Shown one piece after another: positions 19,926-34,825 of a DNA stretch of 64,000 bases. The notes below the pieces were generated by a model. It was not told where the DNA came from, did not search any database, and saw nothing but the letters and a program-made list of their open reading frames with translations. The first letter of the stretch is position 1. The number at the start of each line of letters is the position of its first letter. The stretch is from an uncultured Bdellovibrionales bacterium (GTDB taxonomy: Bacteria > Bdellovibrionota > Bdellovibrionia > Bdellovibrionales > SG-bin7): positions 74,209 through 138,208 of the forward strand of contig CAZCFY010000008.1 of the NCBI GenBank assembly GCA_964498095.1, written 5' to 3'. A program made the translations under genes and the position numbers.

Positions 19926-20063
19926 TTCGGCCCTTAAAATTCCGTTGGTATAGAGAAACCTATAACTAGTGCGCAGTTTATAACACTTGTTAAATGGCCA
20001 AGGCCTGCCAATCAAAGTGCGGGCCTACCTGACCAGGAATGTTTCTCGCGATTCTCGCTTCTT

Positions 20064-20137
20064 AAAGTCCTTTGGGACTTTGCCGCTCGAATCGCTCGTT
20101 TAATCGCTCACGCAGTTATCCCTCACTGCGTTCGGGC
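20064..20137 (+). repeat. modular intergenic repeat, copy 1 (degenerate)
   Basis: Mini-hairpin aaagtcc-ttt-gggacttt, then the arm-like gggactttgcc, then the tail motif tttaatcgctcacgcagttatccctcactgcgttcgggc shared with the other copies. Confidence 0.45.
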
Positions 20138-20222
20138 TTGACATAAACTTTGAGAAAATTCGACTCAAAATTTTCGTCAAGCCATTAACTTTTCCAAAAA
20201 TCGAATTTCTTCATTTTAATAG

Positions 20223-20602
20223 GATTTACCTGTGTTTTAGGTAATAGAATTCCATCCTCTAGCAGAGAGTTAATGAGGCGATCTGATTTTTTTCACAGGT
20301 TCGAATGAATTACCATATCTTCGACGGAATTTGTTATACTCAAGATGCGGATCGTAAAACATGCCAAGGTCAAAGCTTGAGCCCAAGAAGAGAGGACAGG
20401 ACCCGGGGCCATCGGTACATTTCAAGGACACGAGACGTATATTAACGGGTACTTCGGGTATTGTGACGGCCAGAAACTCCGAAGCGAAACGCCGCAATCG
20501 GTGGGATCAGCTCCATCACCATAGATCGCCGCGAAAGTTATAAGTCCCTATATGGGCGGTAGTAGCGGGGCTGATCAGCGACTGGTTTTACACAGGTAAA
20601 TC
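20223..20602. other. ORF-poor 380-bp interval bounded by a 13-bp perfect inverted repeat (MITE-like element or closing helix of a structured RNA)
   Basis: gatttacctgtgt at 20223-20235 pairs with acacaggtaaatc at 20590-20602. The only ORFs inside (20270-20497 minus, 20361-20543 plus) overlap each other and have non-protein-like composition. Confidence 0.25.
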
Positions 20603-20683
20603 TATTCGACATGAGGCAAACCGTTCGCTGTTATTACTTCCTGAGGCATCACAAGTAATTGAAAGAGATTTACCTTGTATCGA

Positions 20684-20866
20684 TTAAACGGGGTCAGCAC
20701 CTTTAATGACGACCCATAGGTTTCCGGCTTCATATGGCTGTTCTCCTTTATGATCGACCATTGTAATAGATAAACTGCCATCTCTTTGGATTTGGCTAAA
20801 AATCTGTGTTTTAGCAAAAGCGGGAGCGGAAAGAATAAGTGAAAGAAAAATGATTAGTGATTTCAT
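20684..20866 (-). CDS. small exported protein (60 aa)
   Basis: Signal peptide MKSLIIFLSLILSAPAFA. The signal peptide is paralogous to the adjacent gene. Confidence 0.4.
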   Translation of the reverse strand: MKSLIIFLSLILSAPAFAKTQIFSQIQRDGSLSITMVDHKGEQPYEAGNLWVVIKGADPV

Positions 20867-20883
20867 TTGAAACTACTTCGATT

Positions 20884-21156
20884 TTACTTACAGACGCAGA
20901 CGCGTTGGCCATCATCGCGTAACTTTCGTTGAACACAAACTCCGGCACGATCCATCGTATAGCAAGCGGTACCGACGGGTAAGCTTAAGCAAGTGTCAGA
21001 ATCAAGGTTACAGATTTTCTCGCTTGATTCACATTTTACCTTTGATTCCTCATTTGCCAGAACAATGGCAGTTTCACCGGCCTTGAGAGATATTACTTGG
21101 CTAGCGAAAACAGTTGATGAAAGAGCGATTGAAAGAAGCACCACTAAAGATTTCAT
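20884..21156 (-). CDS. small exported cysteine-rich protein (90 aa)
   Basis: Signal peptide MKSLVVLLSIALSSTVFA. The mature part carries 9 Cys (KCESSEKICNLDSDTCLSLPVGTACYTMDRAGVCVQ...RVCVCK). Confidence 0.5.
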   Translation of the reverse strand: MKSLVVLLSIALSSTVFASQVISLKAGETAIVLANEESKVKCESSEKICNLDSDTCLSLPVGTACYTMDRAGVCVQRKLRDDGQRVCVCK

Positions 21157-21234
21157 AAAATCCCCCTGCGAAGAGAAATTCTAGCTAAGGGAAATAAGAG
21201 ATTCAATGGGAGTTTTTGATGAAACTCTAGGCAC

Positions 21235-21376
21235 TCAAGGCAGGCGGACTTTGCTCGTTCAAGGCGAAATCTGCTCGCCTGTGGAGCGAATCTATGATTC
21301 GCTTACGCTCTCAGATTTCGCATTGTCTGGCTAACGCCTTTCGCCCCGGCGGGCGCTTTAATTGCTCACGCACTTA
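21235..21376 (+). repeat. modular intergenic repeat, copy 2
   Basis: Starts with tcaaggcaggcggactttgc. The hairpin has arms gcgaaatctg (21264) and cagatttcgc (to 21321), with an inner perfect stem agcgaatc/gattcgct. Tail motifs are ctggctaacgcc (21327-21338) and tttaattgctcacgcactta (21357-21376). Confidence 0.55.
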
Positions 21377-21676
21377 TGTCTCGCATTCGCGTCGACGTAT
21401 GAATTGGCAGTTGAGTTTTATCAAGAGGCGAAGCCAATGAGAATGCCGTATCATTTGAAAGAACAATTTGAGAGAGCGAGTTCTAGTGTTGTACTGAACC
21501 TTGCTGAAGGTTCGGCAAAGCCCACAGCAAAGGATAGAGTAAAATTCTATCGCATTGCACCTGGATCGCTTCGCGAGTGCCAAGGAGTATTGGCGCTCGT
21601 ACAAAATCAAATGCTTTCGCAGAAAGCGGATTATGTTGGAGCTTGTTTGTATAAGCTTAGTAAGAAAACCGTTTAG
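21362..21676 (+). CDS. four-helix-bundle protein (23S rRNA intervening-sequence protein / TIGR02436 family)
   Basis: YELAVEFYQEAKPMRMPYHLKEQFERASSSVVLNLAEGSAKPTAKDRVKFYRIAPGSLRECQGVLALV matches the family pattern (..Q..RAa.S...NiAEG......d...F..iA.GS..E). The N-terminus looks short and overlaps repeat copy 2. Confidence 0.75.
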   Translation: MLTHLCLAFASTYELAVEFYQEAKPMRMPYHLKEQFERASSSVVLNLAEGSAKPTAKDRVKFYRIAPGSLRECQGVLALVQNQMLSQKADYVGACLYKLSKKTV

Positions 21677-21684
21677 CGGCTTTC

Positions 21685-22686
21685 TTATTTTAGCACTTTA
21701 CCGTCGATTTCAAAGTCGATGATTTTTACTTCAGGAAATTCATAGAACATATCAAAAAGGGGAGTTTCTGCACTTGCGACTTCAAATGAAGAGCCATTTA
21801 GCCAAGTTTCAGCGCCCTTTTTGAATTTTAAAACTAAACGACCGTCTTTAAAAGTATGGCCAATATAAAGAGACTTTAGCTCTGGATTGGGATTAGAAAG
21901 GTTTTGTTTTAGCTCCTCTTTGTTAACCCCTTTTAAGAAGGTGTTCACGATTAAATCTACGTTTTTTAGATCTGCTGGAATTGTCCGAGATTTTGATTTT
22001 TCAATTTTTTGGGTTTTAGCATTGAAAAACCGTAAATAAATTCCTTTGCCAAAACCGGAAGTTAAGTGTGCGCCCAGTACTTTAATTAGGTCATGATGAG
22101 CATATTCGGCGCCGAAGTTTGGATGGCGAACAAAGACGACTACGCGGTCGCTAAAGGGGCTTTTTAGATAGCCGAGGGCCACTGTGGGGTTTGGCATATG
22201 AGCCGGAGAGGTTTCTCCAATTTGTTTTGACCCTAGTTTCTTCGAGTTTAAAAATACCTTATTGATCGGGCCCATGTCTGATTCGATTTTTTTAAAACTA
22301 ACATCAAGCTCATCGTCGCCAAATTTAATCGGGAATTTTTGTAGTTTATATTCAGTTCCCGAATGTAAATCGTACTTTTTCTTAAAGTCAGCAATTTCCT
22401 TAGTATACTTTTTTTGTATTTCTGAAAGAGATGGTTTTGGCCCTATTGGGTGATCAAAATCGCCAACCAAATGTTTCATTTCACTCGTATCTGTTTTAAG
22501 GCTAATGGTTACAAGGCTGAGACTTTGGTAACCTTCAAGATAGTCTAAATAAATGTATCCAAAAATGTCTTTTTTGGAAAAGCCGATTGGGTAGATGTCG
22601 GCGACATCTGATTGAAGAAGCCAGTCGTCGGCAAGGACGAAAGAAGGTGAAAGAGATAAAAAGACTGAGAGGAGAAGGTGGTTCAT
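21685..22686 (-). CDS. exported hypothetical protein
   Basis: Signal peptide MNHLLLSVFLSLSPSFVLA. 333 aa, no recognised domain. Confidence 0.55.
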   Translation of the reverse strand: MNHLLLSVFLSLSPSFVLADDWLLQSDVADIYPIGFSKKDIFGYIYLDYLEGYQSLSLVTISLKTDTSEMKHLVGDFDHPIGPKPSLSEIQKKYTKEIADFKKKYDLHSGTEYKLQKFPIKFGDDELDVSFKKIESDMGPINKVFLNSKKLGSKQIGETSPAHMPNPTVALGYLKSPFSDRVVVFVRHPNFGAEYAHHDLIKVLGAHLTSGFGKGIYLRFFNAKTQKIEKSKSRTIPADLKNVDLIVNTFLKGVNKEELKQNLSNPNPELKSLYIGHTFKDGRLVLKFKKGAETWLNGSSFEVASAETPLFDMFYEFPEVKIIDFEIDGKVLK

Positions 22687-22717
22687 ACAGAAAGTGTGGC
22701 ATGGAATGACTTAGGAA

Positions 22718-22775
22718 TCAAGGCACCGAGGCATACAAGGCAGACAAGGTAGACAAGGCAAACGGGCAGACAAGT
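22718..22775. repeat. CAAGGC-type short tandem repeat (about five 9-bp units) in the promoter region of the 21685-22686 gene
   Basis: tcaaggcaccgaggc is followed by atacaaggc agacaaggt agacaaggc aaacgggc agacaagt. The first 16 nt are identical to 24397-24412. Confidence 0.6.
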
Positions 22776-22827
22776 ACCAACAATGAAAGCGTTACTCGTT
22801 ATTAGCCGCTGGGTATTTCGATTATAT

Positions 22828-24186
22828 TTAAAGCGAAGTTGTTTTTTTCTCTTTGGGGGTTTGGCTCTTCTTTTTCTCAATAGCTGCTTTTAGAAGATTT
22901 TTTACGTTTTCATTTTGATATCGAGCGGAATATTCGAGTACTGAAATTAAGTTCCCACCAGTTGAATAGGCGGCGTCGGGAGCAAATTTGAATTCGGGGT
23001 CAGCTCCGCCATTTAAAAGTATGGAAACTAGCATCGGATCTTTCCTTTCGACTGCATAGGCCAAGAGAGGTTTACCATTTTTATCTATTCCATTGAAGTC
23101 AGCTTCTGCAGAACTTAAAGACTTAAATGCCGACGGTGATCCTAGGTGAATTGCGGTTAAAAGGGGTGGGTCTCCAGCGGGACCAAGAAGATTTACATTT
23201 TCCTTTTTTGAAAAATCCTTTTCTAGTCCTGAAAGTGGGGTTGCCGGAAAACTTTGAAAATGGGCTAAAGCAAACTTATTGCCTTTAACGTAGTCGATTA
23301 ATGGATCATTTTCTGCAGTTAAATAAGTAAATTGGCCACCCGAATTTTTCCCAATAAATTTAAGTGCACTTACCGCCAAGACTGCAAATAAATGTCTTTT
23401 ATCGCTAGATGGGCCATTACTTTGAATTGAAACTTGCCAAGCCGGCGACTTTTTATGTTGGCGAAATGCATTTGCATTTTGAGCATCAAGGACAAGTGTT
23501 CTGTTGTAAGAAATTTCGGTTTTTGAGAAAATTCTTTCCGTACTCGACATAACTAGAGATCCATAACCATTTGATGTCGCAGTCCCTGAAGTTCTCATGG
23601 AGCCTAGAAATCCGGAGCTGGAGCCAAAAATATCAGTATTGCTTGAAAATGAAGTTGTTTGTGGTTGGTTCCATACATAGCTTGTGGTTGGTACGCTCAC
23701 GGATTGAATTTTCTGCTCACGTTGTTCATTCATATCAAAATCGAATAGAACTACGATATCTGCTTCTTGTGAGGATTGAACACTCTGATAATTTAGTAAC
23801 GAAAAGACCTGTGATAAGTACTCTTTGTAGGCGTTGTAATATATATCTCCTTCATTCTCTGATTTTTTTGCACTAAAGAATATCCTTTTGCCAGATGCCT
23901 TTGTTCCAATAAGTGCGTCGCCGGCAAGGCTGTAGATTGGGGTGGTTGCAGTAATTATATGGGATAGTTTGTCATTGCGAAAAACATAAAATTTCGATCC
24001 GTAAATTATATATGTTTCGTCGATTCCCTTCTGCGTGCGCTCAGGTTTTCCTAATATCCAGGCCACTTCGAAGACTGTCATCCCCGGTTTAATTTGAGAT
24101 TGCGCCTCCTTATTTTCGCTTAAAGATTGAAGGCCTTCACACCCTAAAGCTAAGAGAGTAGATAGCAGTAATACAAATTTTTTCAC
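22828..24186 (-). CDS. lipoprotein with a BamE/SmpA-like N-terminal segment and C-terminal ankyrin repeats
   Basis: ORF 22828-24243. A GTG at 24186 gives VKKFVLLLSTLLALGC (lipobox). IKPGMTVFEVAWILGKPERTQ is BamE-like. The C-terminus PLLTAIHLGS...DKNGKPLLAYAVERKDPMLVSILLNGGADPE is ankyrin-like. Confidence 0.6.
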   Translation of the reverse strand: MKKFVLLLSTLLALGCEGLQSLSENKEAQSQIKPGMTVFEVAWILGKPERTQKGIDETYIIYGSKFYVFRNDKLSHIITATTPIYSLAGDALIGTKASGKRIFFSAKKSENEGDIYYNAYKEYLSQVFSLLNYQSVQSSQEADIVVLFDFDMNEQREQKIQSVSVPTTSYVWNQPQTTSFSSNTDIFGSSSGFLGSMRTSGTATSNGYGSLVMSSTERIFSKTEISYNRTLVLDAQNANAFRQHKKSPAWQVSIQSNGPSSDKRHLFAVLAVSALKFIGKNSGGQFTYLTAENDPLIDYVKGNKFALAHFQSFPATPLSGLEKDFSKKENVNLLGPAGDPPLLTAIHLGSPSAFKSLSSAEADFNGIDKNGKPLLAYAVERKDPMLVSILLNGGADPEFKFAPDAAYSTGGNLISVLEYSARYQNENVKNLLKAAIEKKKSQTPKEKKTTSL

Positions 24187-24268
24187 GTTGATTTCCCTGA
24201 AAAAAATTAAATTCTTACATGAAATTCTACTTGTTTGAATCACAGCTTAGCAAATAGAATATGTTGAT

Positions 24269-24448
24269 ATGAGGCCTCTGTATAATGTAATTTTACTTGC
24301 AATTTGGATTGTTTTTACTATTGGATGCAAGACTCAAAGTGAAAAGCAGCAAGAGCCGATTACTTCTCCAGCAATTCAAGACCAAGGAATAGATAGTCAA
24401 GGCACCGAGGCAGTCAAGGCAGGCGGAATTTGCTTGCTAACTAGCTGA
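24269..24448 (+). CDS. possible small lipoprotein (59 aa, below the ORF-track cutoff)
   Basis: Manual translation: MRPLYNVILLAIWIVFTIGCKTQSEKQQEPITSPAIQDQGIDSQGTEAVKAGGICLLTS*. It has a lipobox (FTIGC). Its 3' end runs into repeat copy 3, so it may not be real. Confidence 0.3.
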   Translation: MRPLYNVILLAIWIVFTIGCKTQSEKQQEPITSPAIQDQGIDSQGTEAVKAGGICLLTS

Positions 24449-24503
24449 AGAGAGTACCTTCAGCTCCGCTACGCAAATTCCGCTTTAATTGCTGACGCAC
24501 TTA
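24397..24503 (+). repeat. modular intergenic repeat, copy 3
   Basis: Starts with tcaaggcaccgaggcagtcaaggcagg. The hairpin has arms gcggaatttgc (24423) and gcaaattccgc (to 24483), with inner stem gctgaag/cttcagc. The tail is tttaattgctgacgcactta. Confidence 0.6.
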
Positions 24504-24671
24504 CCTCGTCTTCGACTCGGCCAAGGCAAAAAGGTTCAAGACATCGAAGACAAGGAAGCGCGGCGGTCCTTATGGGGCTCGTCGTGAAGTAATGTTTGTG
24601 GCATATGCATTGCTAAGTATGTGTGAGTATATGAGACTTGTTTTTAGAAACTGTTATGAGGAGATGAGGAC

Positions 24672-25250
24672 GTGAAATTGTCTTTTAATTTTACACTAGC
24701 CGCTTTTTGGGCTTTGGTAGTTTTGCCAATCGCCCTATTTTCTGCTGAGTTTCCACTTCAAGAGGTAAATAACGGCTTTGCAAAGTCGGATGGCGATCCA
24801 AAAACCATAGCAATTTCGGTTTTGAGTGCAGATGCAGCTGATGAGCTATTTCGAGAGTTCGTCACTCATAACGAAATCTTATTCGACGTCACAAATGGCC
24901 GTTGCTCTGATAGAGCTACCGATATGGCTCAAATTGCAGAAAGTAAGAGGATTATTTTAGGAAATATATTTGCGGAAGGCATACTGAGATTAAAGAGCGG
25001 CGTTCTAAAGAAAGGTTGGATGTATCACGTCGCTCCTGTGGCCTTTGTAACTCAATCTACAGGTGAGCCAAGATTGTTAGTCTTTGACCCCGCTTTGTTT
25101 CAAAAGGCCGTCACAGTAGAAGAGTGGAGAAGCGTGATGACAGATGACTCTGGCAAAGAGCTCACAGAATCTAGAACTTATATTGGATCTCGTTTTCAAT
25201 ACTTTAGTAGACTTTTTGAACAATCAAAACAAAGCTGGGACACTGAATAG
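24672..25250 (+). CDS. exported protein, possibly protein-glutamine glutaminase-like (Cys-His-Asp papain-like fold)
   Basis: Signal/TM segment LAAFWALVVLPIALFSA. GRCSDRATDMAQIAE ... KGWMYHVAPVAFV ... LLVFDPALF resembles the C...W.YHVAP...DP pattern of protein glutaminases. Recalled from memory and not verified. Confidence 0.4.
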   Translation: MKLSFNFTLAAFWALVVLPIALFSAEFPLQEVNNGFAKSDGDPKTIAISVLSADAADELFREFVTHNEILFDVTNGRCSDRATDMAQIAESKRIILGNIFAEGILRLKSGVLKKGWMYHVAPVAFVTQSTGEPRLLVFDPALFQKAVTVEEWRSVMTDDSGKELTESRTYIGSRFQYFSRLFEQSKQSWDTE

Positions 25251-25287
25251 GGCGGTCGCGCCCAGGCGTTTAGCGCTGCTTGGAATT

Positions 25288-25360
25288 GCGGACTTTACTT
25301 GCTCTTCGCAATCCCTTGTATTGCGGGGCTCGCAAAGTCCGATTTGACAGCTGACGCTTA
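25288..25360 (+). repeat. modular intergenic repeat, copy 4
   Basis: The hairpin has arms cggactttac (25289) and gcaaagtccg (to 25341), with inner stem cgcaat/attgcg. The tail is atttgacagctgacgc. Confidence 0.55.
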
Positions 25361-25535
25361 CATGCCTCACGTACGTTCGGCGTGGGAAAAGAGGATTTGT
25401 GAGTGTGGGGGAGTGATGAGGGTGATTTGGAGCGAGGCGGAACGACGACCTGCGGAGCTTGATTGCTAGAACGGTTCGCTAGCCGCTGGCCGCTGCACCT
25501 ACTGCCCTCGTCGGGCGTTTAGCAATCTGCGCTCC

Positions 25536-26096
25536 TCATGAGGTCGTCGGATTGTCTCTTAGTATTGCGACGAAGGCATTCGCCGTGGTTTGTTTGTTGT
25601 GGATCATTGCGATGGTTCGGTGAGCTCCATCAACTAATTCGTAGTCGCCCTTGTATTTAATGGAGCTATGCCTAAGTAAAATCAGTGTCCGGAGATTTTC
25701 GTGCGGCAAATCTAAGTTTAGAAACTCATTTTTGAATGCTGGATCTTCAACATGGTTGGTATGCAGTACCTTTAAGTTATACTGACTCTTCTCTAATAGA
25801 TCCTTAACTTTGTCGGTCATCGCAGGAATGTATAGAGAAGCTAGATTCACTTCCTCTAACTTCCAATGATCTACTAGCTCAAATCTTCGATCATTTCTTA
25901 TTCCTACGGTCCATATTAAGCAGGGATTGGTATCGTTTCTAGTCGCTATGTATGCGCGTACAGCGTCGGTCAATTGTTGCTCATTACTCGGGTCCCAGTT
26001 GCTGAGGAGATCCGAAAGCTCACTGGAAGTGGATTTCAGAATTTCGGTTTCTAAAAAGTATTTCAGTACATCCCAACGGGTGTAACTTTGACTCAT
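25536..26096 (-). CDS. ParB/sulfiredoxin-fold (DGxHR) domain protein
   Basis: 186 aa, no signal peptide. The C-terminus YELVDGAHRTIAMIHNKQTTANAFVAI matches the ParB N-terminal-domain/ParB-like-nuclease core motif. The start overlaps the upstream stop (ATGA). Confidence 0.45.
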   Translation of the reverse strand: MSQSYTRWDVLKYFLETEILKSTSSELSDLLSNWDPSNEQQLTDAVRAYIATRNDTNPCLIWTVGIRNDRRFELVDHWKLEEVNLASLYIPAMTDKVKDLLEKSQYNLKVLHTNHVEDPAFKNEFLNLDLPHENLRTLILLRHSSIKYKGDYELVDGAHRTIAMIHNKQTTANAFVAILRDNPTTS

Positions 26097-26620
26097 TTGT
26101 CATTTCGTTCCTGGATATGTTTAATTAGCTCATCTACTGACATTTCTTCTGAGGATTTTTCTAATTTCGTTGTCAGCTGAACTACAAACTCATTGTCTCT
26201 TTTTCCAGCATTCTTAAAACGCACTTTGAGTGTTGGAAACCATTTGGAACTAAATGTCTTTATGAATTCGAGATTTGGGGGAGTGTCTTCAAGCTGCACA
26301 TCAATGCATAATCTTGAACTATTCTCAAGTGTTGTACAGTTAGATAAAACATACTTGGATATAGCCCGAATTCCTTCCATCTTGGCGGCTTTTAGTTCTG
26401 ACTCTAAGTCAGTAACAGTGTAGTTCTCTTTGTTTTGAAATATTAGATTAAATGTTTCTTTCGGGAATAATGACTTGAAGGTTTCGGGGCTCTGCTTTGA
26501 ATAATTCCAAATCTGAATGATCTTTTGATCAGTATAAGAATCTTTTAAAGAAAAATAAGCTGCTAATGCTAAAGTCAAACACAAAGTAATAATTGCGAGA
26601 GCTATTGGCCTAAATTTCAT
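26093..26620 (-). CDS. membrane-anchored hypothetical protein
   Basis: N-terminal TM helix MKFRPIALAIITLCLTLALAAYF. There are 4-bp ATGA overlaps with both neighbours. Confidence 0.5.
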   Translation of the reverse strand: MKFRPIALAIITLCLTLALAAYFSLKDSYTDQKIIQIWNYSKQSPETFKSLFPKETFNLIFQNKENYTVTDLESELKAAKMEGIRAISKYVLSNCTTLENSSRLCIDVQLEDTPPNLEFIKTFSSKWFPTLKVRFKNAGKRDNEFVVQLTTKLEKSSEEMSVDELIKHIQERNDK

Positions 26621-26931
26621 TTATTACTCGCAGTCTGTTTGCAGTACCCTTTTGCTTCGGCTTCATAAAACTGAATGATGAGAAATTCTCTCATGGTGAG
26701 TACCGTCTGTACGCCGCTTATAGATCCATTGGGACATTTCGCTTTTAAATCTGAATGAAGATTAAAAAACGGCGTTGTCAGGTGCAATACATCAACAGAG
26801 TACGATATGGTCTCGATAGGTGTCAGATTTCCTTGCTCAAAATCAGAAATTGATAAAGACGTTACCGATACGCAGGCGGTCTGGGAAAGGATTATTAAAA
26901 ACAAAAGTAGGTTTTTCATTGTAAACTTCAC
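26617..26931 (-). CDS. small lipoprotein
   Basis: Signal peptide plus lipobox-like LLFLIILSQTAC. First gene of a three-gene overlapping operon. Confidence 0.5.
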   Translation of the reverse strand: MKFTMKNLLLFLIILSQTACVSVTSLSISDFEQGNLTPIETISYSVDVLHLTTPFFNLHSDLKAKCPNGSISGVQTVLTMREFLIIQFYEAEAKGYCKQTASNK

Positions 26932-26944
26932 TTATTCTCACATG

Positions 26945-27022
26945 GCGAACTTTGCTGGCTAGTTGGCCGAGTTGAGTACAATCAGCCTCGCGGCGCAAAG
27001 TTCGCATAATCCAGCTAACGCC
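26945..27022 (+). repeat. modular intergenic repeat, copy 5
   Basis: The hairpin has arms gcgaactttgc (26945) and gcaaagttcgc (to 27005). The tail is ataatccagctaacgcc. Confidence 0.55.
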
Positions 27023-27145
27023 TTTTTATCCTACGGACAATTCTATTTGTGTAATTCTGCGCTGCCAAGTAGAATCAAATGTAATTGATTTTTACTTTAT
27101 ATAAATTAGTGAATTCGCATCAGGACTAACGTGTAGAAAGAGTTT

Positions 27146-27349
27146 ATGAGAATAGTATCTTTCAGTTTTTTGCTAATTATAACTGGATGTTTTGATCCTA
27201 AGCCAACGCACACACTGTGGGTTAAGAGTCTACGGGGAGAGAAAGAGAAAATAGCGGATTTTTATCAAAGCCATGAAGGCGGTAATGATTGTGAAGCGGT
27301 ACGAAAGCGTTGGACGGAAAACTATCAGCCTTGGTGTGAGGCTCATTAA
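27146..27349 (+). CDS. small lipoprotein-like protein (67 aa)
   Basis: MRIVSFSFLLIITGC lipobox. No other evidence. Confidence 0.35.
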   Translation: MRIVSFSFLLIITGCFDPKPTHTLWVKSLRGEKEKIADFYQSHEGGNDCEAVRKRWTENYQPWCEAH

Positions 27350-27436
27350 TTTTGAGTCGACGACTTGCTTGTGGTATTTTATAGATCTGGCGCTCTGAAA
27401 ATTGTAAAGAGTCGGATACCCTAGAGTAGGAGTAAA

Positions 27437-27979
27437 ATGAAGAAGTATGTTGGCAATTTTGTCGCCGGGGTTTTTGTAATTGGTTTTATTCTATTGAACT
27501 CTAAGAGTTGTGTTATACAGCCATGGCATCGGCCTGAAGCTGGGGCTATTTTCTCGCTCGATGGTGAAGGCAAAAGAGGGATAATGATGGTTTTCGTCTC
27601 TGATCTCTTGGTGATGTTTTGGTACACCGACGGTAAAGGCTCAATGGAAGGAACCTTAAATGAGGTAAGAGGAAACTTAGCAACTAATTACTTTTGGAAT
27701 ATTTGGCGCATTGAAGGACCATATGTTTGGTGGCCTTTAAGAATCTATCCGTCTCACCTAAAACCAGTAAACGCAGAAATTAAGACACTTCAAAAAGTTA
27801 TCCATAGCCCCGAAAAAGGTTTTAATCCGGTATTTCAAAGTAAGGGAGATACAACCTACACCACGCTGTTGGTTGGTGATAACGTGGTTGAGTTTCATGG
27901 AATGACTCTTAAGCGAGAAAAGGACAATCCCGAATTGGTGAGCAAGTTGTTTTCTAGTTTTATTCCGGAGACGAAATAA
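27437..27979 (+). CDS. membrane-anchored hypothetical protein
   Basis: N-terminal TM helix NFVAGVFVIGFILL. 180 aa, no recognised domain. Confidence 0.5.
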   Translation: MKKYVGNFVAGVFVIGFILLNSKSCVIQPWHRPEAGAIFSLDGEGKRGIMMVFVSDLLVMFWYTDGKGSMEGTLNEVRGNLATNYFWNIWRIEGPYVWWPLRIYPSHLKPVNAEIKTLQKVIHSPEKGFNPVFQSKGDTTYTTLLVGDNVVEFHGMTLKREKDNPELVSKLFSSFIPETK

Positions 27980-28380
27980 GGTTGGTTGTATTCGTGAAGA
28001 AACGGAAAAGGGCATACATTTTGCGCTTTAAGGATTAAATCCTAACTATGGTAATGGCGATATTGAAGCGGAATCAGGTAATCAGATAAAATTGGATAGG
28101 GAGACGAACAAGTTTTGAAGAAAGTCGATTGGAAAAGAGCATTTTATGCGGCCGCTTTAGTTGCAGGAGTAATAGCAATTTTAATTGTGTTAACTAGTCC
28201 ATACTCTTGTGTAGACTTTAAAAGTAAGGCTAAAAGATTTGAGGACGCCCATTAGGCTGATCGTCAACGAGCAAACGGCGCTGCTTATGGGCTTGTCGGA
28301 AGATTACTCAATCAGTAAAGAGGGAACCACCTAGGTGTCGGAGGTTGTCCCTGGGTAGAAGGAAATTCAGATAAAATATA

Positions 28381-29907
28381 ATGCCTAAAACTAAATATAC
28401 GATTGAAGATATGCAAAAGTTCGCCAAGGAAAAGGGTGGGCGGTGTTTATCTAAACGGTATGTTAATTCCCACAGTAAGCTGTTGTGGAAATGTCAGCGA
28501 GGGCATACTTGGAAAGCGATGCCGATTTCTATTACCAGGGGTTCATGGTGCCAAAGGTGTGGTTGGATTAGTACTGGAGAAAAAAATCAAGCGCGAATAC
28601 TTGGTCACAAAAGCCATTTAGACGCACAAAGAGAAATGCTAAGAAAAGCCCGCAAGATTGCTAGAGTTAGGGGTGGGCGGCTTCTTTCTGGAAAATACAA
28701 CAATAATAGTTCTTCACTATCCTGGAGATGTGAAAATCGTCATATTTGGAAAGCAAAATACGCAAATGTTGTTAATGGCAATTGGTGTCCATATTGTACA
28801 AAAAACTATGGTGAGAAAATCGTGCGGGAGATATTTGAGAAAGTAACCGGTAGAGAATTCCACTTGGCCTATCCCAAGTGGCTTAAAAATGGCGACGGGA
28901 ATCAGCTCCAGCTTGATGGTTACAATGAATCATTAAGGATAGCGTTTGAACATCAAGGAAAGCAGCACTTTCAGGCTTTAGATGTTATGGGGGGTAGGAA
29001 AGGCCTATTGTCCCGATTAAGAAACGACAGAATAAAAAAGCAGCTTTGTAAAAGGAAAATGGTAAGTCTATTAATAATAAAATCCGTACCCCAAATCGTC
29101 TCTGTAGATGAGGCAAAAAAAATAATCTTAGACTTTTGTCAACGGCATCGAGTTAGTAAAGTTCATAAAGTTGAGGATATTAAAATCAATTTCAATTCTA
29201 TTTATGGATCAGATGGCGAGAAAATACTTTCGGCCATAGAAAACGAAGTTAGAAAAATGGGTGGGAGAATTATTGACAGAAAATATCATGGATGGAATGG
29301 CAATATTTCCTTTAAATGTCGAAGTGGTCATACGTGGTCTACTCGGCCCAAACATATTTTAAACGGATCATGGTGTCCTGTATGTGCGGGAAAGGTACCT
29401 TTGGGGATACAACTAATGCTTGAAATCGCTAACCAACGAGGCGGGGCGTGCTTATCCACTGGTTACAAAAACGCGCATACTTCTCTTAAATGGCAATGTG
29501 GCAAAGGTCATATGTGGTACGCGCCTGCGATGACGATTAGAAGAGGGGCATGGTGCGCAAAGTGTGCCGGAGTGGCAAAGCTTTCAATTGAGGATATGAA
29601 AGTGCTAGCGAAGCGGAACGGTGGACAATGTTTATCCAAAAAGTACTTCAATGTTTTCAAAAAAATAAAATGGAAGTGTGGAGAGGGCCACATATTTGTC
29701 GCAATGCCAGCTTCTGTTAGGCGTGGGTCCTGGTGCCCGATATGTCGGCGAGGAATTACTTGGACAAAACCACTCGCAGTGAAGGCAGCTAAAAAATATA
29801 AAAGTCGATCAGAATTAAAAAAGAACGCATGGGGCGGATGGGACTACCTTAGGCGTGCGGGATTATTGGATCAAGTTATGCCGAAATCGAAGACTCGCAA
29901 AAAATAG
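28381..29907 (+). CDS. five-fold treble-clef zinc-ribbon (DUF4379-like) repeat protein with a central PD-(D/E)XK-type nuclease core
   Basis: Five repeats fit the pattern GG+cLS..Y.n....L.W+C..GH.W.a....i.+G.WCp.C, two before and three after the core. The core segment GEKIVREIFE ... LQLDGYNESLRIAFEHQGKQHF matches the E...D...E.Q(K) endonuclease module seen with these zinc ribbons in phage and giant-virus genes. Confidence 0.7.
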   Translation: MPKTKYTIEDMQKFAKEKGGRCLSKRYVNSHSKLLWKCQRGHTWKAMPISITRGSWCQRCGWISTGEKNQARILGHKSHLDAQREMLRKARKIARVRGGRLLSGKYNNNSSSLSWRCENRHIWKAKYANVVNGNWCPYCTKNYGEKIVREIFEKVTGREFHLAYPKWLKNGDGNQLQLDGYNESLRIAFEHQGKQHFQALDVMGGRKGLLSRLRNDRIKKQLCKRKMVSLLIIKSVPQIVSVDEAKKIILDFCQRHRVSKVHKVEDIKINFNSIYGSDGEKILSAIENEVRKMGGRIIDRKYHGWNGNISFKCRSGHTWSTRPKHILNGSWCPVCAGKVPLGIQLMLEIANQRGGACLSTGYKNAHTSLKWQCGKGHMWYAPAMTIRRGAWCAKCAGVAKLSIEDMKVLAKRNGGQCLSKKYFNVFKKIKWKCGEGHIFVAMPASVRRGSWCPICRRGITWTKPLAVKAAKKYKSRSELKKNAWGGWDYLRRAGLLDQVMPKSKTRKK

Positions 29908-29937
29908 TGAGTGGAAATAGGGAGTGTGTTTTAAAGG

Positions 29938-30432
29938 TTACTGAACTGGTCCCCCAAACAGGATTTCGTTTTGTATATCGTAAAAATATACTCTTGCGAA
30001 CGGAATGTTTTTCTTGTAGTGCCGAATAATTTCTCTTAAATTTATATTTTGTAGCGGAGCGAGATTTTGATCTCCAATAATTTCAAACGGCTTTAGATTT
30101 TCAGTATGGATAACTAACCAACATTGTGTGGCATCGGCGTTCGCGGTGTACTTTTCAAGAGACTTGGCTTTGTCGCTAATTATCTGAACTATTTCATTGC
30201 CAAATCCTATCCATCCGCCATCGTCGTGCAGAGAGTGTCCCCTATAATAGCGTTTTCGAGATTCGCTTTTAATTTTATTCTTTTTAATCTTAGCATCATT
30301 TGAATATGAGGTTAATTCGACGGCTATGTTTTCTTTGGCTGTCCTAACAATGAAATCAGGTGATTCAGATGGATCAATACCAAGGACATCAAGTTCGTTA
30401 TGGTCTTTTAAAGCCTTTGCTACCGCGCCCAT
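29938..30432 (-). CDS. hypothetical protein, possible PD-(D/E)XK restriction-endonuclease-like fold
   Basis: ORF 29938-30513. The internal ATG at 30432 (MGAVAKALKD...) avoids a 44-nt overlap with the upstream gene. SPDFIVRTAKENIAVELTSY resembles a PD...(D/E)xK-type core with Thr in place of Lys. Confidence 0.4.
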   Translation of the reverse strand: MGAVAKALKDHNELDVLGIDPSESPDFIVRTAKENIAVELTSYSNDAKIKKNKIKSESRKRYYRGHSLHDDGGWIGFGNEIVQIISDKAKSLEKYTANADATQCWLVIHTENLKPFEIIGDQNLAPLQNINLREIIRHYKKNIPFARVYFYDIQNEILFGGPVQ

Positions 30433-30469
30433 GACCTTAAACTCAATTAGCTTTTTTGTGGTTGTCAGC

Positions 30470-31288
30470 TTAGGTCTCCTTATTTTCTGCACTTTCTGAT
30501 GGCGAATAATCAATTTTCGGTGGTAAGTCTGTCATCGCGTAATGTACAAACTGTTGGCCAAGCTGTGTAAGCTCGTATTGGTCTTCATCATCAAAGGCCG
30601 ATGTTATTGTGGATGATCCTGTGCCTTTCGATTTGGGCCTTTTGACAAAGTTCCCATAATAATCTTTTTCCCGACATTGTCTAATAATTCCGCCAGTTGA
30701 TAGATCTCTGAACAAAAGTTTGTAGAGATCGGCTTCGGCTGAATCTTCACGAACCTTATCTCTTCCCAGTGATCGCCACACCCCGCCGCGGGTTATTCCA
30801 GCATTGTTGTAAATTGCAGCAACTACTTTAAAGTGCAATTCAGAATAAGTATTTATCCAATCAATGAAGAGCCTGATTACATCGTCTACAGTAAGATCCG
30901 TGGCTGCGGCATTTGCTAAAATATTTCTAATATATATTCGTTTTTCTTTGCTTTCTGCGCCAGACCACTCGCGAAAAGTTTTGCGAATGAGAGATTGATA
31001 TTCAGGACTTTCAATTCTTTCCTTAATGTTTTCATCGTGCAAATCCAGTCGGGCTAAAATTTCAACAATTGTTTCAGCCTTTTCCTTTAATTCATCCTCG
31101 AGCATTTTTAGCCACTGATCGAAGAATTTATTTACCTTGTCTTGCTCTCTCTCAGACCAATAACCGGCTGCGGCCGATAGCATGCCGCCAACATAAGGTA
31201 CTACACTCGCAATCTGAAGCGCGCCCCGAGCTGCTTTAGATGCTCCGTTCTCAGCTGGCAGCTGTGAACCGCAAGTTTCTTCGCTCAT
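30470..31288 (-). CDS. hypothetical protein (272 aa) of unknown family
   Basis: Long clean ORF starting 3 nt after the stop of the DUF2188 gene. It has an N-terminal Gly/Ala-rich hydrophobic patch (ALQIASVVPYVGGMLSAAAGYW), a helical middle (IRNILANAAATDLTVDDVIRLFIDWINTYSELHF), and a possible wHTH-like C-terminus. Confidence 0.55.
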   Translation of the reverse strand: MSEETCGSQLPAENGASKAARGALQIASVVPYVGGMLSAAAGYWSEREQDKVNKFFDQWLKMLEDELKEKAETIVEILARLDLHDENIKERIESPEYQSLIRKTFREWSGAESKEKRIYIRNILANAAATDLTVDDVIRLFIDWINTYSELHFKVVAAIYNNAGITRGGVWRSLGRDKVREDSAEADLYKLLFRDLSTGGIIRQCREKDYYGNFVKRPKSKGTGSSTITSAFDDEDQYELTQLGQQFVHYAMTDLPPKIDYSPSESAENKET

Positions 31289-31291
31289 CGC

Positions 31292-31591
31292 TCAGCCCTT
31301 CGGTGGATAGGGATCTTTTTTGTAAGTGCGCTCTTCCTGGATGCGGCCATTTTCACCTTTGATGATGAGTTGGTCGCCACCCCAATTTCGCGTGGTTGTT
31401 GGCGCATCTTTTTTGGCGTCGGATTTATTTTGATAGGTCGCTATGGGATTTTCGTCGCCTCGGCGTTTAAGTTGCCAGTTATCGTTTTGGCGGTTTTTGG
31501 TTAGTTCAAACGTCTTTGATTTTTTCACTGAAAGCCCCCTCCTGGGTAAGTGGTTGAGCTTTAAATTTGAGTTGACTGACGAAATCGTCAA
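31292..31591 (-). CDS. DUF2188-like small protein
   Basis: NDNWQLKRRGDENPIATYQNKSDAKKDA ... DQLIIKGENGRIQEERTYKKDPYPPKG fits the DUF2188 pattern (W.v...g...a...f.tk.eA ... l.ih..dG.iqe..ty..DP.P). Confidence 0.55.
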   Translation of the reverse strand: MTISSVNSNLKLNHLPRRGLSVKKSKTFELTKNRQNDNWQLKRRGDENPIATYQNKSDAKKDAPTTTRNWGGDQLIIKGENGRIQEERTYKKDPYPPKG

Positions 31592-31711
31592 GTTAGCTCT
31601 ATAATTTTTTTTGCTTAAGCTAGAGGCGGTTTACTAGTTAAACTAAACTATTTTTGTACGCTGAGAACGGTTTGGCTGGTCTGTTGGGAAGATCCTTGAG
31701 AGAATCAGGCC

Positions 31712-32197
31712 ATGAGCCAAGGTAATCGGATTTCATCGGTATTTTTTTATTATTATTCCAGGATTTTTGCGGTGTTTTGGTTTGGTGGGTTACTAGTGGC
31801 AACTGGCGCGATGCTTTGGGGAGCATACTGCGGGAAAGTAAAGGGCGTTGACCTCCCATTTATTTTTATTCCAGTTGCGATGATGGTTTTTGGTTTTTTC
31901 TTTTTTAAGAAATTTATTTTCGATTTTCAAGCTGATGTTTGGGACTTTGGTGATCACTTACTAGTTAAAAAATCTGGAGTAGAAGATAAGATTCTCTTAT
32001 CGGATATTAAGAATGTTGGGTACAGCAGGTTTTCACCACAATTTGTAACGCTCTCACTTCGCAAAACATCAAAATTTGGAAACGAGATTATGTTTTTAAC
32101 AAAAATTAGTCCGGCCATGATGATTCCTTTTGCAAAAAGCCCATTAGTGGAGGACCTAATTGATCGAGTTGATAAGGCTAGGATTGGGAGTGGCTGA
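31712..32197 (+). CDS. membrane protein (two TM helices plus a possible bacterial PH-like domain)
   Basis: Two hydrophobic helices are followed by a soluble domain of about 90 aa. Preferred over the overlapping minus ORF 31638-31859. Confidence 0.45.
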   Translation: MSQGNRISSVFFYYYSRIFAVFWFGGLLVATGAMLWGAYCGKVKGVDLPFIFIPVAMMVFGFFFFKKFIFDFQADVWDFGDHLLVKKSGVEDKILLSDIKNVGYSRFSPQFVTLSLRKTSKFGNEIMFLTKISPAMMIPFAKSPLVEDLIDRVDKARIGSG

Positions 32198-32350
32198 ATT
32201 ACGAACCTTGTTCGGTGCTCGGGCGTTCTCAGTAACGCGTAACCGGTTAATAGTAAACCGATATTGTTTTCAGGAACTGTTTACGGGTAGCTATCAGCTG
32301 ATTACAGGGGGCCTTTAAAAACCAAGCGGGAGTTAGAGGGGAGATTGGGA

Positions 32351-32911
32351 TTAATGGTCAGTGAATTCCGTGCGCAAAATTCCATAAACTTCGATATCAA
32401 CATAAATTCCATTTTTTTTAAATTCTTGACGTAGTAACCCTTCTTTTTTCATTCCGGCCTTAACCATTACTCTTCCCGAAGATGGGTTAGATGACATATG
32501 CCTTGAGGTAATTTTATTGAGGTTTAATTTTTCAAAGCCAAATTTAAGGACTGCTAGCGCAGCTTCAGAGCAGTATCCGTTATTCCAATAATCCACACCT
32601 ATCCAATAACCTAATTCCGCCTTACTATTTCCATCTGCAATTCCATTTAAATCGATGCATCCGATAAGTTTGTCATTTTCTTTAAGAGTAATCGCAAATT
32701 GGACAGCATTTCCTTTTTGAAACCAAAGATTGTGTTTGTTTATCCATTCTTGAGCGGCCCCATCAGGATATGGATGTGGTATTGTTGCCGTAGTAGCTGC
32801 CACAAGGGGGTGGCCAGCCATCCTTTGAACAGCTTCAGCATCAGACAAAACGAATGGGCGCAGTACAAGTCTTTCCGTTACTAAACTAGGTCTATTTTTA
32901 TTTTCCACCAA
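32351..32911 (-). CDS. GNAT family N-acetyltransferase (RimJ/RimL-like)
   Basis: TERLVLRPFVLSDAEAVQRM ... IGCIDLNGI ... ELGYWIGVDYWNNGYCSEAALAVLKFGFEKLNLNKI is the typical RimJ/L-type GNAT layout. Confidence 0.9.
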   Translation of the reverse strand: MVENKNRPSLVTERLVLRPFVLSDAEAVQRMAGHPLVAATTATIPHPYPDGAAQEWINKHNLWFQKGNAVQFAITLKENDKLIGCIDLNGIADGNSKAELGYWIGVDYWNNGYCSEAALAVLKFGFEKLNLNKITSRHMSSNPSSGRVMVKAGMKKEGLLRQEFKKNGIYVDIEVYGILRTEFTDH

Positions 32912-33060
32912 ATGATTTTCTCAAAATGGTTTGTAGCTGTCTAGAGTTCTAGTGGTTATAATGCGGGGATTTGGCTAAGAATTCACGGACTTTTGAGGGT
33001 TTTTGGCGTTTGGGGAAACGAAAGCTGCTCGCCAAAGAGCAAATTAGGAATTTAAGGTTC

Positions 33061-33119
33061 GATTTAATCACTGTCGTTGTTATCCCTCGCGGTGCTCGGG
33101 CGCATAATCTAGCTAACGC
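33061..33119 (+). repeat. modular intergenic repeat, copy 6 (tail motifs only)
   Basis: gatttaatcactgtcgttgttatccctcgcggtgctcgggcgc is followed by cataatctagctaacgc. It shares gttatccctc with copy 1 and ataatc.agctaacgc with copy 5. Confidence 0.45.
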
Positions 33120-33181
33120 ATTTTACCCTGACGGGCACCCGCATTTCTAGGCTGCCGCACCGATGCCTGGGGTCGGCGCTT

Positions 33182-33640
33182 CTAATTTGCAATATGCCAG
33201 GAATTATATAAACCACCAGCGCATACTTTGCCAGTGCGGCTCACGTGCCACGAGTTGTATTGGCCACCACAACAAACTTCGCCAGTTGATGATTCATGCC
33301 AGGAGTTGTATTGGCCACCGCAAGCGACTTTGCCAGTGCGGCTTTCGTGCCAGGAGTTATACTGACCACCAGCGCAAACTTCGCCAGTTGAAGATTCATG
33401 CCAGGAGTTGTATTGGCCACCGCAAGCGACTTTGCCAGTGCGGCTTTCGTGCCAGGAGTTATACTGACCACCAGCGCAAACTTCGCCGGTTGAAGATTCA
33501 TGCCATGAGTTGTATTGGCCGCCACAAGCGACTTTCCCGGTAGATGTTTCATGCCAGGAATTATATTTTCCCCCACAGGCGATCGATTCAGAAAATGCAG
33601 GTGAGGAAAGAAGGGTTAATAGCAAAATTAGTTTCTTCAT
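33182..33640 (-). CDS. secreted tandem-repeat protein (eight 17-aa units of consensus C/A-C/A-GGQYNSWHES-x-TG-x-V)
   Basis: Signal peptide MKKLILLLTLLSSPAFS, then ACGGKYNSWHETSTGKV, ACGGQYNSWHESSTGEV, CAGGQYNSWHESRTGKV and so on. I recognise no family. The two other long ORFs over the same DNA are repeat shadows. Confidence 0.75.
   Translation of the reverse strand: MKKLILLLTLLSSPAFSESIACGGKYNSWHETSTGKVACGGQYNSWHESSTGEVCAGGQYNSWHESRTGKVACGGQYNSWHESSTGEVCAGGQYNSWHESRTGKVACGGQYNSWHESSTGEVCCGGQYNSWHVSRTGKVCAGGLYNSWHIAN
33185..33580. repeat. coding tandem repeat: 51-bp unit with a higher-order 102-bp unit
   Basis: 33301-33402 and 33403-33504 differ at a single base (cgccagttg versus cgccggttg). 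The flanking units are more diverged. Confidence 0.9.
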
Positions 33641-33652: not shown

Positions 33653-34132
33653 TTAGAGATTAACCGCACATTTAGGGATATCAGAATTTGTTAAATCATT
33701 AATGTGCGTCGGGTAGCTTCGGCAAATGTTTCCTAAGTTAATATTATAAAGAATAGCATTTTGATCAACAGATATTAGAATCGCTGAATCTTTCATATTG
33801 GGTAGAAATCTTAATACATCCTTTGCTTCACGAACATTATATTGGGTCATAAAAACATCAAATTTACCCATTTCTATCCAAGATTGATAAACTTCGTTAG
33901 TTTTTAGATTCATCAATGCCCAATAAAGTTTTGGAGGCAATTTTGAAATTTCGTTTTGGGAAAGATTAGATTTAATCAGAAGAGTCCAGCTGTATACGTC
34001 ATCATAGGCGTATTGCATGCCAATGTTTGGTTTACCCTGTGAATCTATGTCGGGAATAATTTCCTTTCCGAGATCAGTAGCATCTACTTGGTAGAAACCA
34101 AAAACCACAAAAAGGCTTAAAAGGTATTTCAT
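33653..34132 (-). CDS. exported hypothetical protein
   Basis: Signal peptide MKYLLSLFVVFGFYQVDA. ATGA overlap with the upstream gene. Confidence 0.5.
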   Translation of the reverse strand: MKYLLSLFVVFGFYQVDATDLGKEIIPDIDSQGKPNIGMQYAYDDVYSWTLLIKSNLSQNEISKLPPKLYWALMNLKTNEVYQSWIEMGKFDVFMTQYNVREAKDVLRFLPNMKDSAILISVDQNAILYNINLGNICRSYPTHINDLTNSDIPKCAVNL

Positions 34133-34749: not shown

Positions 34750-34825
34750 TGGAGCGGGAGACGGGGCTCAAACCCGCGACCTTCGCCTTGGCAAGGCGAC
34801 GCTCTATCAACTGAGCTACTCCCGC
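34750..34825 (-). tRNA. tRNA-Gly (anticodon GCC), CCA encoded
   Basis: The reverse complement is GCGGGAG-TA-GCTC-AGTTGATA-GAGC-G-TCGCC-TTGCCAA-GGCGA-AGGTC-GCGGG-TTTGAGC-CCCGT-CTCCCGC-TCCA. It forms a full cloverleaf with a 7-bp acceptor stem and anticodon loop TT-GCC-AA. Confidence 0.95.

Follow-up and report, generated by a model that had tools for sequence, protein, structure and literature searches.

A stretch of 64,000 nucleotides from an uncultured Bdellovibrionales bacterium (contig CAZCFY010000008.1 of assembly GCA_964498095.1), referred to here as the window and used for all coordinates unless a relative is named, carries between 20.0 and 33.2 kb a family of eight or nine non-coding repeat units, which lie on the + strand without exception. 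Three modules make up these units: a CAAGGCA-type tandem repeat (the leader), a hairpin that spans 50-65 nt and pairs imperfectly, and a tail, TAAT..GCTNACGC, that is conserved. A modest preference is given here to the reading that these repeats are multiplied copies, mostly without a gene, of the 5' flank of a unit common in Bdellovibrionota, built around a gene for a PF05635 four-helix-bundle protein of the 23S intervening sequence (IVS) and Avd type. The link to this gene, the pairing kept in the stems, the restriction of the copies to one island and their shared orientation are regarded as established; for the multiplication, the candidates are local duplication at a recombination-prone repeat-palindrome and hairpin-directed mobility. 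What appears in the window to be a novel family of repetitive extragenic palindromic (REP) elements or of integron sites gives way to a gene-linked origin, which accounts for the leader and the hairpin.

A tract-hairpin flank of PF05635 genes

The evidence for this origin comes from four independent Bdellovibrionota relatives (L015, L020, L021 and L022/L023; Table 1), in which tandem 8-9-mers are followed by a long hairpin and then by the start codon of a PF05635 gene. The genes adjoining this arrangement differ from locus to locus: a sigma-54 activator and a 2-oxoglutarate (2OG) oxygenase at L015, isocitrate dehydrogenase at L020, aldehyde dehydrogenase at L022/L023, and lon and clpX at the further locus L017/L018, where the hairpin is present with no tract upstream. 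In L015, the closest relative, the junction between repeat and hairpin has sequence homology to copies C and B1 of the window, with 'TCAAGGCAGCGAGGCAGCAAGGCGAAAAG' aligning with 'TCAAGGCACCGAGGCAGTCAAGGCAGGCGGAAT' and 'TTCAAGGCGAAATC'. Read on the coding strand, the succession of tandem CA(A)GGCA 8-9-mers, hairpin and gene is found at all four relatives and at window copy B. Because this order recurs in four relatives with differing neighborhoods, and because the junctions are homologous, leader and hairpin together constitute a conserved 5' flank of this PF05635 gene subfamily.

Within this common plan, the sequence of the hairpin differs at every locus while its pairing persists, and the number of units in the tandem tract varies from 3 to 15 among the relatives. 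The Shine-Dalgarno sequence is paired within the hairpin in three of the four (L020, L021 and L022); at L020, the 3' arm of the stem spans it and ends 3 nt before the ATG (-46 kcal/mol, z -8.9). Each gene in the relatives has a single leader, solo copies are absent from the 10 kb to either side of it, and no local alignment scoring 22 or more places the tail in the flanks of these genes. The gene-linked origin explains two of the modules, leader and hairpin, and not the tail.

Signs that the site is unstable are found in the relatives as well. Two near-identical strains (L022 9752-9906, L023 ~6640) are distinguished by an indel within the octamer tract; the indel measures ~155 nt, is flanked by CAGGCAATC and terminates in three extra octamer units. 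At L017 9608-10297 (also L018 and L019), two divergent PF05635 genes stand around a perfect palindrome of ~100 nt, inserted between lon and clpX; the pair is an inverted duplication centered on the upstream hairpin. At least five PF05635 paralogues occur on what is most likely one contig of 2,662,874 bp.

In the window, the sole PF05635 gene adjoins copy B and lacks its first five codons. The source annotation starts it at an internal ATG (21437), giving 79 aa, as in the 100% identical protein P0273 (79 aa). With the full-length protein P0274 it shares 77% identity in an alignment that begins only at P0274 residue 6, and DNA homology to L015 likewise starts at ACGTATGAA, position 21396. In place of the ribosome-binding site and first codons, a block of ~75 nt lies between hairpin B1 and the gene, composed of the two forms of the tail (T2, then T1) with a small hairpin between them. 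The remaining copies of the window are solo and have no gene remnant. The initial annotation had recorded the overlap of one copy with the four-helix-bundle gene as a side remark; the overlap is present, and it is the key to the origin of the family because leader and hairpin form the upstream flank of PF05635 genes in relatives.

Make-up of the repeat units and constraint on their structure

The copies, labeled A to G (Table 1), combine the modules in different ways. In the leader, a short unit, (G/A)TCAAGGCA, recurs in tandem with a period of 8-9 according to Tandem Repeats Finder (TRF). In the hairpin, an internal loop separates an outer stem of ~11 bp from an inner stem of 6-8 bp, and the feet read GCGRA.../...TYCGC. 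The tail invariably starts at the 3' foot of the hairpin, with TTTAAT or ATAATC, and has two related forms, T1 (TTTAATYGCTSACGCASTTA...) and T2 (ATAATCYAGCTAACGCMTTTT). On folding, each T1 tail precedes a further hairpin, giving a repeating scheme of hairpin, linker and hairpin. Copy B is a composite in the order leader, orphan 5' arm, hairpin B1, T2, small G+C hairpin and T1, and the leader of copy C overlaps the end of a truncated lipoprotein-like open reading frame (ORF; 24269-24448). Copy F folds no better than its shuffles.

The modular make-up proposed in the initial annotation is upheld by this inventory, and the strings that it quoted all lie where it placed them. The six copies that it counted are real, and a further partial copy at ~32213-32245 belongs with them in a total of eight or nine units. 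The first begins at 20048, not at 20064, only its inner stem having been recognized, and the copy given at 33061 does have two tails but a hairpin that is merely degenerate. The blocks that it described as a CAAGGCA-rich leader are indeed shared, their nature being that of a tandem repeat, of which the copy at 22718 consists entirely.

The units are set apart from the rest of the window both by their sequence and by their position. The tail core GCTNACGC has 15 sites on the two strands of the 64 kb, 8 of which fall within 20106-33112, all on the + strand, and a composite pattern of the tail with both arms, absent from all of 100 shuffles, picks out copies C, D and E. Blocks common to copies measure 21-27 nt at 90-96% identity overall; BLAST pairs 21229-21255 with 24408-24434 (27 nt, 93%), 21354-21376 with 24481-24503 (23 nt, 96%), 22718-22743 with 24397-24422 (26 nt, 92%) and 27003-27026 with 33101-33124 (24 nt, 92%). 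A covariance model (R1) of the hairpin and tail of five copies, run over the whole window with filters off, returns these five training copies together with F2 (E 7e-5) and B2 (E 0.004), and no convincing copy in the other 51 kb, where the best match (14 bits, E 0.03) lies within a gene. The covariance-model search that the initial annotation had called for, carried out here on the 64-kb window, thus adds two members beyond the training set and nothing convincing elsewhere, a result that speaks against the dispersed REP-like family that it had considered. Of the gene junctions that the units occupy, three are divergent, three are convergent and two are tandem; because all three types are represented, the units have no fixed relation to transcription, and the single orientation irrespective of flanking genes that had been reported is borne out.

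Pairing in the hairpins is maintained through sequence change. The five hairpins have RNA fold z-scores of -3.2 to -5.1 relative to shuffles. In a MAFFT alignment of the five units, 86% of the cells of the 11-bp outer stem are paired, compared with 79% in column shuffles, 1 of 500 of which reaches the observed value, and 22-51% when the partners are slid. Three pairs of the outer stem have changed on both sides (G-C to A-U, A-U to C-G and U-A to C-G), and copies C and E, with interiors of 38 nt each that are 62% identical, provide two further compensated pairs in the inner stem. The compensatory covariation noted earlier in the arms is therefore real but thin, as it is based on five sequences only, and it suggests that structure in the units is under constraint. 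The stems of the window are nearly all Watson-Crick, with 0-2 G.U per 13-33 pairs, and equally stable on both strands; a choice of strand from G.U pairs was rejected, the strands being indistinguishable. The tails are 90-96% identical while the hairpins that they adjoin are barely alignable, and because the tails are so much the more uniform, either the tail spread after the hairpins had diverged or its homogenization is ongoing.

Table 1. Positions and composition of the repeat units, the adjoining gene and the PF05635 loci of relatives (coordinates of L-numbered loci are their own)
Feature	Position	Strand	Sequence or structure	Evidence
Copy A, whole	20048-20137	+	hairpin + T1 tail	
Copy A, hairpin	20048..20095	+	outer GCGATTC/GAATCGC, inner AAAGTCC/GGACTTT	fold z -4.3
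Copy A, covariance-model match	20044-20123			E 6e-14 (training sequence)
Copy A, tail	20099..20137	+	T1 long form TTTAATCGCTCACGCAGTTATCCCTCACTGCGTTCGGGC	repeat family D2; BLAST match to 21357-21377
Copy B, whole	21224-21395	+	composite	
Copy B, leader and orphan arm	21224..21257	+	~2 units ACTCAAGGC; orphan 5' arm GGCGGACTTTGCT without 3' partner	TRF, BLAST
Copy B1, hairpin	21260..21325	+	CAAGGCGAAATCTG/CAGATTTCGCATTG, inner stem AGCGAATC/GATTCGCT	fold z -4.4
Copy B1, covariance-model match				E 2e-20 (training sequence)
Copy B1, tail	21322..21341	+	T2 ATTGTCTGGCTAACGCCTTT	repeat family D15
Copy B2	21342..21395	+	small G+C hairpin CGCCCCGGCGGGCG, then T1 tail	covariance-model match 21349-21381, E 0.004; alignment to L015
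PF05635 four-helix-bundle (23S-IVS/Avd-type) gene	21396..21676	+	without first 5 codons	Pfam 1.5e-15; subfamily HMM 1e-39, positions 6-99
Leader-only copy	22718..22774	+	~5 units of period 9, without hairpin	repeat search, BLAST, TRF
Copy C, whole	24395-24522	+	leader + hairpin + T1 tail	
Copy C, leader	24395..24422	+	~3 units AGTCAAGGC	TRF, BLAST
Copy C, hairpin	24423..24483	+	GCGGAATTTGC/GCAAATTCCGC, inner stem AGCTGAAG/CTTCAGCT	fold z -5.1
Copy C, covariance-model match				E 8e-21 (training sequence)
Copy C, tail	24484..24522	+	T1	more CAAGG-type units after it, and a further hairpin 24504-24555
Copy D	25288..25357	+	hairpin GCGGACTTTAC/GCAAAGTCCG, one A.C mismatch; T1-like tail ATTTGACAGCTGACGC	z -3.7
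Copy D, covariance-model match				E 6e-16 (training sequence)
Copy E	26945..27026	+	hairpin GCGAACTTTGC/GCAAAGTTCGC; T2 tail ATAATCCAGCTAACGCCTTTT	z -3.2
Copy E, covariance-model match				E 7e-22 (training sequence)
Partial copy G	~32213..32245	+	T1 end CGGTGCTCGGGCG; degenerate T2 TTCTCAGTAACGCG	T1 end identical to 33090-33102
Copy F	33019..33124	+	remnant 5' arm CGAAAGCTGCTCGCC, weak stem, T1-like tail 33063-33101, T2 tail 33101-33124	
Copy F2, covariance-model match	33085-33129			E 7e-5 (outside training set)
L015, PF05635 locus	tract 2788-2911; hairpin 2914-2964; gene at 3001		15 octamer units GCAACAAG/ATCAAGGC; 14-bp hairpin	protein 77% identical
L020, PF05635 locus	tract 9812-9946; ATG 10038		15 perfect GTCAAGGCA units; 29-bp stem	protein 66%
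L021, PF05635 locus			3 units; two hairpins, second ~29 bp including AAAGGAG	protein 68%; z -5.5
L022/L023, PF05635 locus (low-GC genome)			ATCAGGCA units; CCTCC/GGAGG hairpin adjoining ATG	protein 59%

Origin of the units and competing explanations

How the flank of a gene could have become a multiplied, gene-less repeat is suggested by its two components. In intact units, the hairpin would act in the mRNA leader of the PF05635 gene; because its 3' arm holds the Shine-Dalgarno sequence in three of four relatives, translation may be blocked until the hairpin is melted or cut. Stems of 20-29 bp would present double-stranded RNA of the kind cut by RNase III, whose cleavage occurs in 23S rRNA intervening sequences, and a tandem tract with a variable number of units may tune expression. 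As DNA, the repeat and palindrome together would make a fragile, recombination-prone site, which could have been copied locally in this genome and become a joint between acquired gene blocks. The solo copies would then have arisen locally, by copying and recombination in a hot spot for the acquisition of foreign genes, their direct orientation reflecting a tandem origin, and the tail (TTTAATYGCTSACGC or ATAATCYAGCTAACGC), seen in this genome only, may represent a junction sequence.

Several observations weigh against this interpretation. The solo copies have sharp edges and no trace of a gene; copies B and C in particular share both edges, in blocks of 27 and 23 nt, while their interiors differ and their flanks are unrelated. 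Such edges are more suggestive of a discrete element, or of a joint made at a specific site, than of duplications that have decayed. No Shine-Dalgarno sequence occurs in the hairpins of the window or of L015, and a translational role is accordingly not universal. The scarcity of G.U pairs and the equal stability of the two strands suit palindromic DNA no less than RNA. Nothing corresponding to the tail occurs in the relatives examined, and the multiplication is so far unique to this genome, of which the portion examined is 64 kb of a contig of at least 172 kb. Taken together, sharp edges, absence of gene remnants, few G.U pairs and the tail are no less compatible with a discrete DNA reaction directed by the hairpin. 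One formulation of such a reaction, judged rather unlikely, is that gene, octamer tract and hairpin constitute a self-contained mobile cassette that moves by hairpin-directed single-strand recombination or nicking, with the foot and the TAAT..GCTNACGC tail as the joint and the island as an integron-like capture array with non-canonical sites. If true, it would account for the arrival of stand-alone "IVS protein" genes in rRNA operons and in intergenic regions between housekeeping genes, such as lon-clpX.

A related explanation, also improbable, is that the units are the hairpin recombination sites of an integron-like system and the island an array like a cluster of attC sites lacking integron-integrases (CALIN), with the recombinase elsewhere. 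The units do have features in common with attC sites: eight or nine of them, all in one orientation, are packed into 13 kb at a single locus with none convincing outside; their imperfect hairpins measure 50-65 nt, with feet that are conserved and centers that vary; they are typically spaced at 0.9-1.7 kb, with one to three small orphan ORFs per interval, a GNAT acetyltransferase among them; their edges are sharp, and genes are truncated exactly at these edges, at 21396 and 24448. The hairpin feet, however, have no RYYYAAC/GTTRRRY (R''/R') boxes, and canonical attC sites were rejected, by inspection and by regular expression, for want of AAC/GTT boxes. An attC-like expression (complementary xxxxAAC...GTTxxxx with inner pairing) has 13 matches in the window, none on a unit, and the three in the span of the island (20183-20275, 27849-27991 and 33850-33906) are about the share expected by length, without enrichment. 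The conserved tail lies outside the stem on a single side, the ORFs between units run in both directions, and some units stand back to back with nothing between them (B1-B2 and F1-F2). Among the 47 ORFs scanned (454 to 39816), neither IntI/Phage_integrase (tyrosine recombinase) nor any further recombinase or transposase family is represented, and the integron link raised in the initial annotation is not supported. In relatives, moreover, this leader and hairpin accompany a single gene family, one set for each gene.

Comparable in standing, and likewise doubtful, is the proposal that the units are a non-autonomous element of the REP or miniature inverted-repeat transposable element (MITE) type, copied in trans on single-stranded DNA, for example by an HUH nuclease such as a REP-associated tyrosine transposase (RAYT) or the TnpA of IS200/IS605, with orientation fixed relative to replication. 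The copies are modular, partial, tandem and, in B, apparently nested; cumulative GC skew rises across the window and the units are uniformly on the leading strand; the tails are far less diverged than the hairpins beside them; and the layout of a hairpin, a linker of 7-8 nt rich in A/T and a conserved 8-mer is one that we take to resemble HUH nuclease sites. HUH enzymes usually read hairpin sequence, however, and the sequences of these hairpins are not conserved; the 51 kb beyond the island, with their many intergenic regions, yield no convincing copy. The GTAG-type tetranucleotide of REP elements is absent from the 5' flanks (CAG, AAG, ATG, ATT and CTC), the palindromes differ between copies, and no gene of the RAYT/TnpA (HUH, Y1) type occurs among the scanned ORFs of the window. 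As for MITEs, B and C run from AGGCAS... to ...ACGCACTTA, two ends that do not form an inverted repeat, there is no target-site duplication, and the CAAGGCA on both sides of copy C is part of its tandem tract. Strict patterns were also sought in collections of sequences, in scans that require exact matches and are blind to diverged copies: T1 has 9 matches in unrelated taxa among 185,579 species genomes, compared with ~9 by chance as estimated from degeneracy and collection size, and none in viral contigs; the composite pattern and T2 have none in metagenomes; and BLAST finds none in plasmids and phages. The REP, bacterial interspersed mosaic element (BIME), pneumococcal BOX and enterobacterial ERIC repeats resemble the units in being extragenic, palindromic and modular, with partial and tandem combinations. 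They are dispersed genome-wide in both orientations, whereas the 64 kb seen here contain a single island with one orientation and modules derived from the leader of a gene. Distinctly less likely than these proposals is a family of independently functional small structured RNAs, or of RNA stability or processing elements, transcribed from the + strand. Stems kept through compensatory change, conserved A/U-rich linkers between hairpins and the homologous hairpin in a probable mRNA leader in relatives would suit it, but the units have no promoter-like site, lie antisense to, upstream or downstream of their neighbors with no pattern, show hardly any G.U pairing at equal strand stability, and have no Rfam match at gathering score or up to E 5. 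Descent from a decayed protein-gene family, finally, is scarcely credible. By eye, the stretches after the tails of A, C and D are faintly like the N-terminus of the PF05635 gene, and one tail overlaps its long ORF; against this, the octamer periodicity is unable to hold a reading frame, and a hidden Markov model (HMM) of 75 subfamily members, searched with filters off against every stop-to-stop fragment of the window, has its sole match at 21362-21673 (E 1e-39), with nothing near other units up to E 50. This effectively refutes decay and disposes of the concern, raised with the first description of the units, that they might be gene debris.

Other identities were considered and set aside. Promoters and terminators were rejected, there being no promoter-like site on the units and no main hairpin matched: no T-run follows the stems, and none of the 23 sites of a terminator-pattern scan falls on the five main hairpins, in agreement with the earlier argument that the units are not simple terminators. 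Where the pattern does touch a unit, it does so at 21340-21355, in the small G+C hairpin of copy B, and at 33042-33025 on the - strand, in the weak stem of copy F. Leader and tail can pair perfectly in C as an outer, R-box-like stem, yet the positions at which B and C differ by G or C are not partners of each other, and there is no covariation. The T2 sequence TTCGCATAA is like the XerC arm of Xer/dif sites, with no XerD-type arm 6-8 nt away, and is a resemblance only; TAAGTGCG on the reverse strand of T1 resembles an oriT/MOBQ nick site on the wrong strand relative to the hairpin; and att repeats from tandem integration at tRNA-Gly were dismissed because no unit has a copy of the tRNA 3' end. 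A diversity-generating retroelement (DGR), the context of Avd, is not indicated, with no reverse transcriptase domain in the island ORFs and no long near-repeat pair beside the gene. The 9-periodic pattern, written CAAGGCANN or CAAGGCANNCAAGGCANNCAAGGCA, is very common in viral contigs of IMG/VR (L024-L143), with at least 120 matches and no PF05635 gene among the matches listed. It was rejected as most likely reflecting coding repeats of the collagen-like Gly-X-Y type, which can mislead pattern searches on this motif.

Two known systems bear on the preferred reading, that of a multiplied PF05635 flank. Intervening sequences of 23S rRNA with a PF05635 ORF, as in Leptospira and Coxiella, have the same protein family and associate the gene with a long stem of the RNase III type. 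The arrangement described here differs in lying outside an rRNA gene (no rRNA, and thus no insertion at helix 25 or 45, occurs in the window), in a hairpin that is wholly upstream of the ORF rather than enclosing it, and in the 8-9-nt tandem array that precedes the hairpin; we know of no such array described for IVSs. A second likeness is to leader hairpins that block translation and to repeat-tract contingency loci, such as the 7-bp repeats of Haemophilus hmw: in L020, L021 and L022, a stable stem takes up the Shine-Dalgarno sequence, and the upstream tract varies from 3 to 15 units, with indels between strains. In the closest relative and the window copies, in contrast, the Shine-Dalgarno sequence is unpaired. 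Stand-alone PF05635 genes are very common, with many copies per genome. A full-text search of PMC and bioRxiv on the family names returned 24 papers, none of them on PF05635 flanks as judged by title and abstract, and to that extent the tract-hairpin flank of stand-alone PF05635 genes appears to be undescribed in the searchable literature. A variable tract of 8-9-mers with a long stem that often hides the ribosome-binding site would offer a recognizable handle on the function and spread of these genes. The architecture predicts regulated or processed expression, and it marks a visibly unstable DNA site, subject to indels, inverted duplication and, here, multiplication.

The variable island and its surroundings

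The units punctuate an island of 13 kb, a patchwork made up of orphan genes and bounded at one end by tRNA-Gly(GCC) (34750-34825). The island encodes small secreted proteins, an ankyrin lipoprotein, the GNAT acetyltransferase and a glutamine deamidase-like protein whose sole relative is 45% identical. A 508-aa protein with repeated treble-clef zinc fingers (PF14311) is encoded at 28381-29907 (+) and matches phage HNH/homing endonuclease families (phrog_559, 8.7e-57); the gene is probably a selfish nuclease gene within the island. At 31292-31591 (-), a 99-aa ORF matches the PADLOC candidate defense family PDC-S16 (1.5e-13) as well as phrog_3220. Relatives have the same pgsA-tRNA-Gly anchor with other genes at it and none of the units; in L013 3268-5129 (GCA_021733565.1), for example, where PgsA is 85% identical, the anchor is occupied by SMODS/CD-NTase and patatin genes, a pair like those of the cyclic oligonucleotide-based antiphage signaling system (CBASS). 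The pgsA-tRNA-Gly site is a hot spot for variable and defense genes.

Some further features of the island and of the window can be noted. The ORF at 25536-26096 (-), of 186 aa, ends in ...YELVDGAHRTIAM..., which by eye is like a ParB/sulfiredoxin-type DGxHR motif, and has no Pfam, PADLOC or PHROG match. A secreted cysteine-rich protein at 33182-33640 (-) is built from 51/102-nt tandem repeats (GGQYNSWHES.TG.V.C units). A second repeat, unrelated to the family described above, is a palindromic unit of ~80 nt (GATTTACCTGTG...CACAGGT) found at 20223-20303 and at 14860-14937 (-), the two copies being 84% identical over 70 nt (E 5e-9); its 13-nt end recurs inverted at 20590-20602 (-), which delimits, directly after copy A, a MITE-like segment of 380 bp between inverted repeats. 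Near the start of the window, 1901-2052 (+), with an SDR gene (865-1638, -) on one side and an MFS gene (2701-3936, -) on the other, matches the Rfam group II intron family D1-D4-4 (76 bits, E 8e-15); the region, which probably extends to ~2650, has no ORF for an intron-encoded protein on the + strand and looks like an ORF-less intron or an intron fragment.

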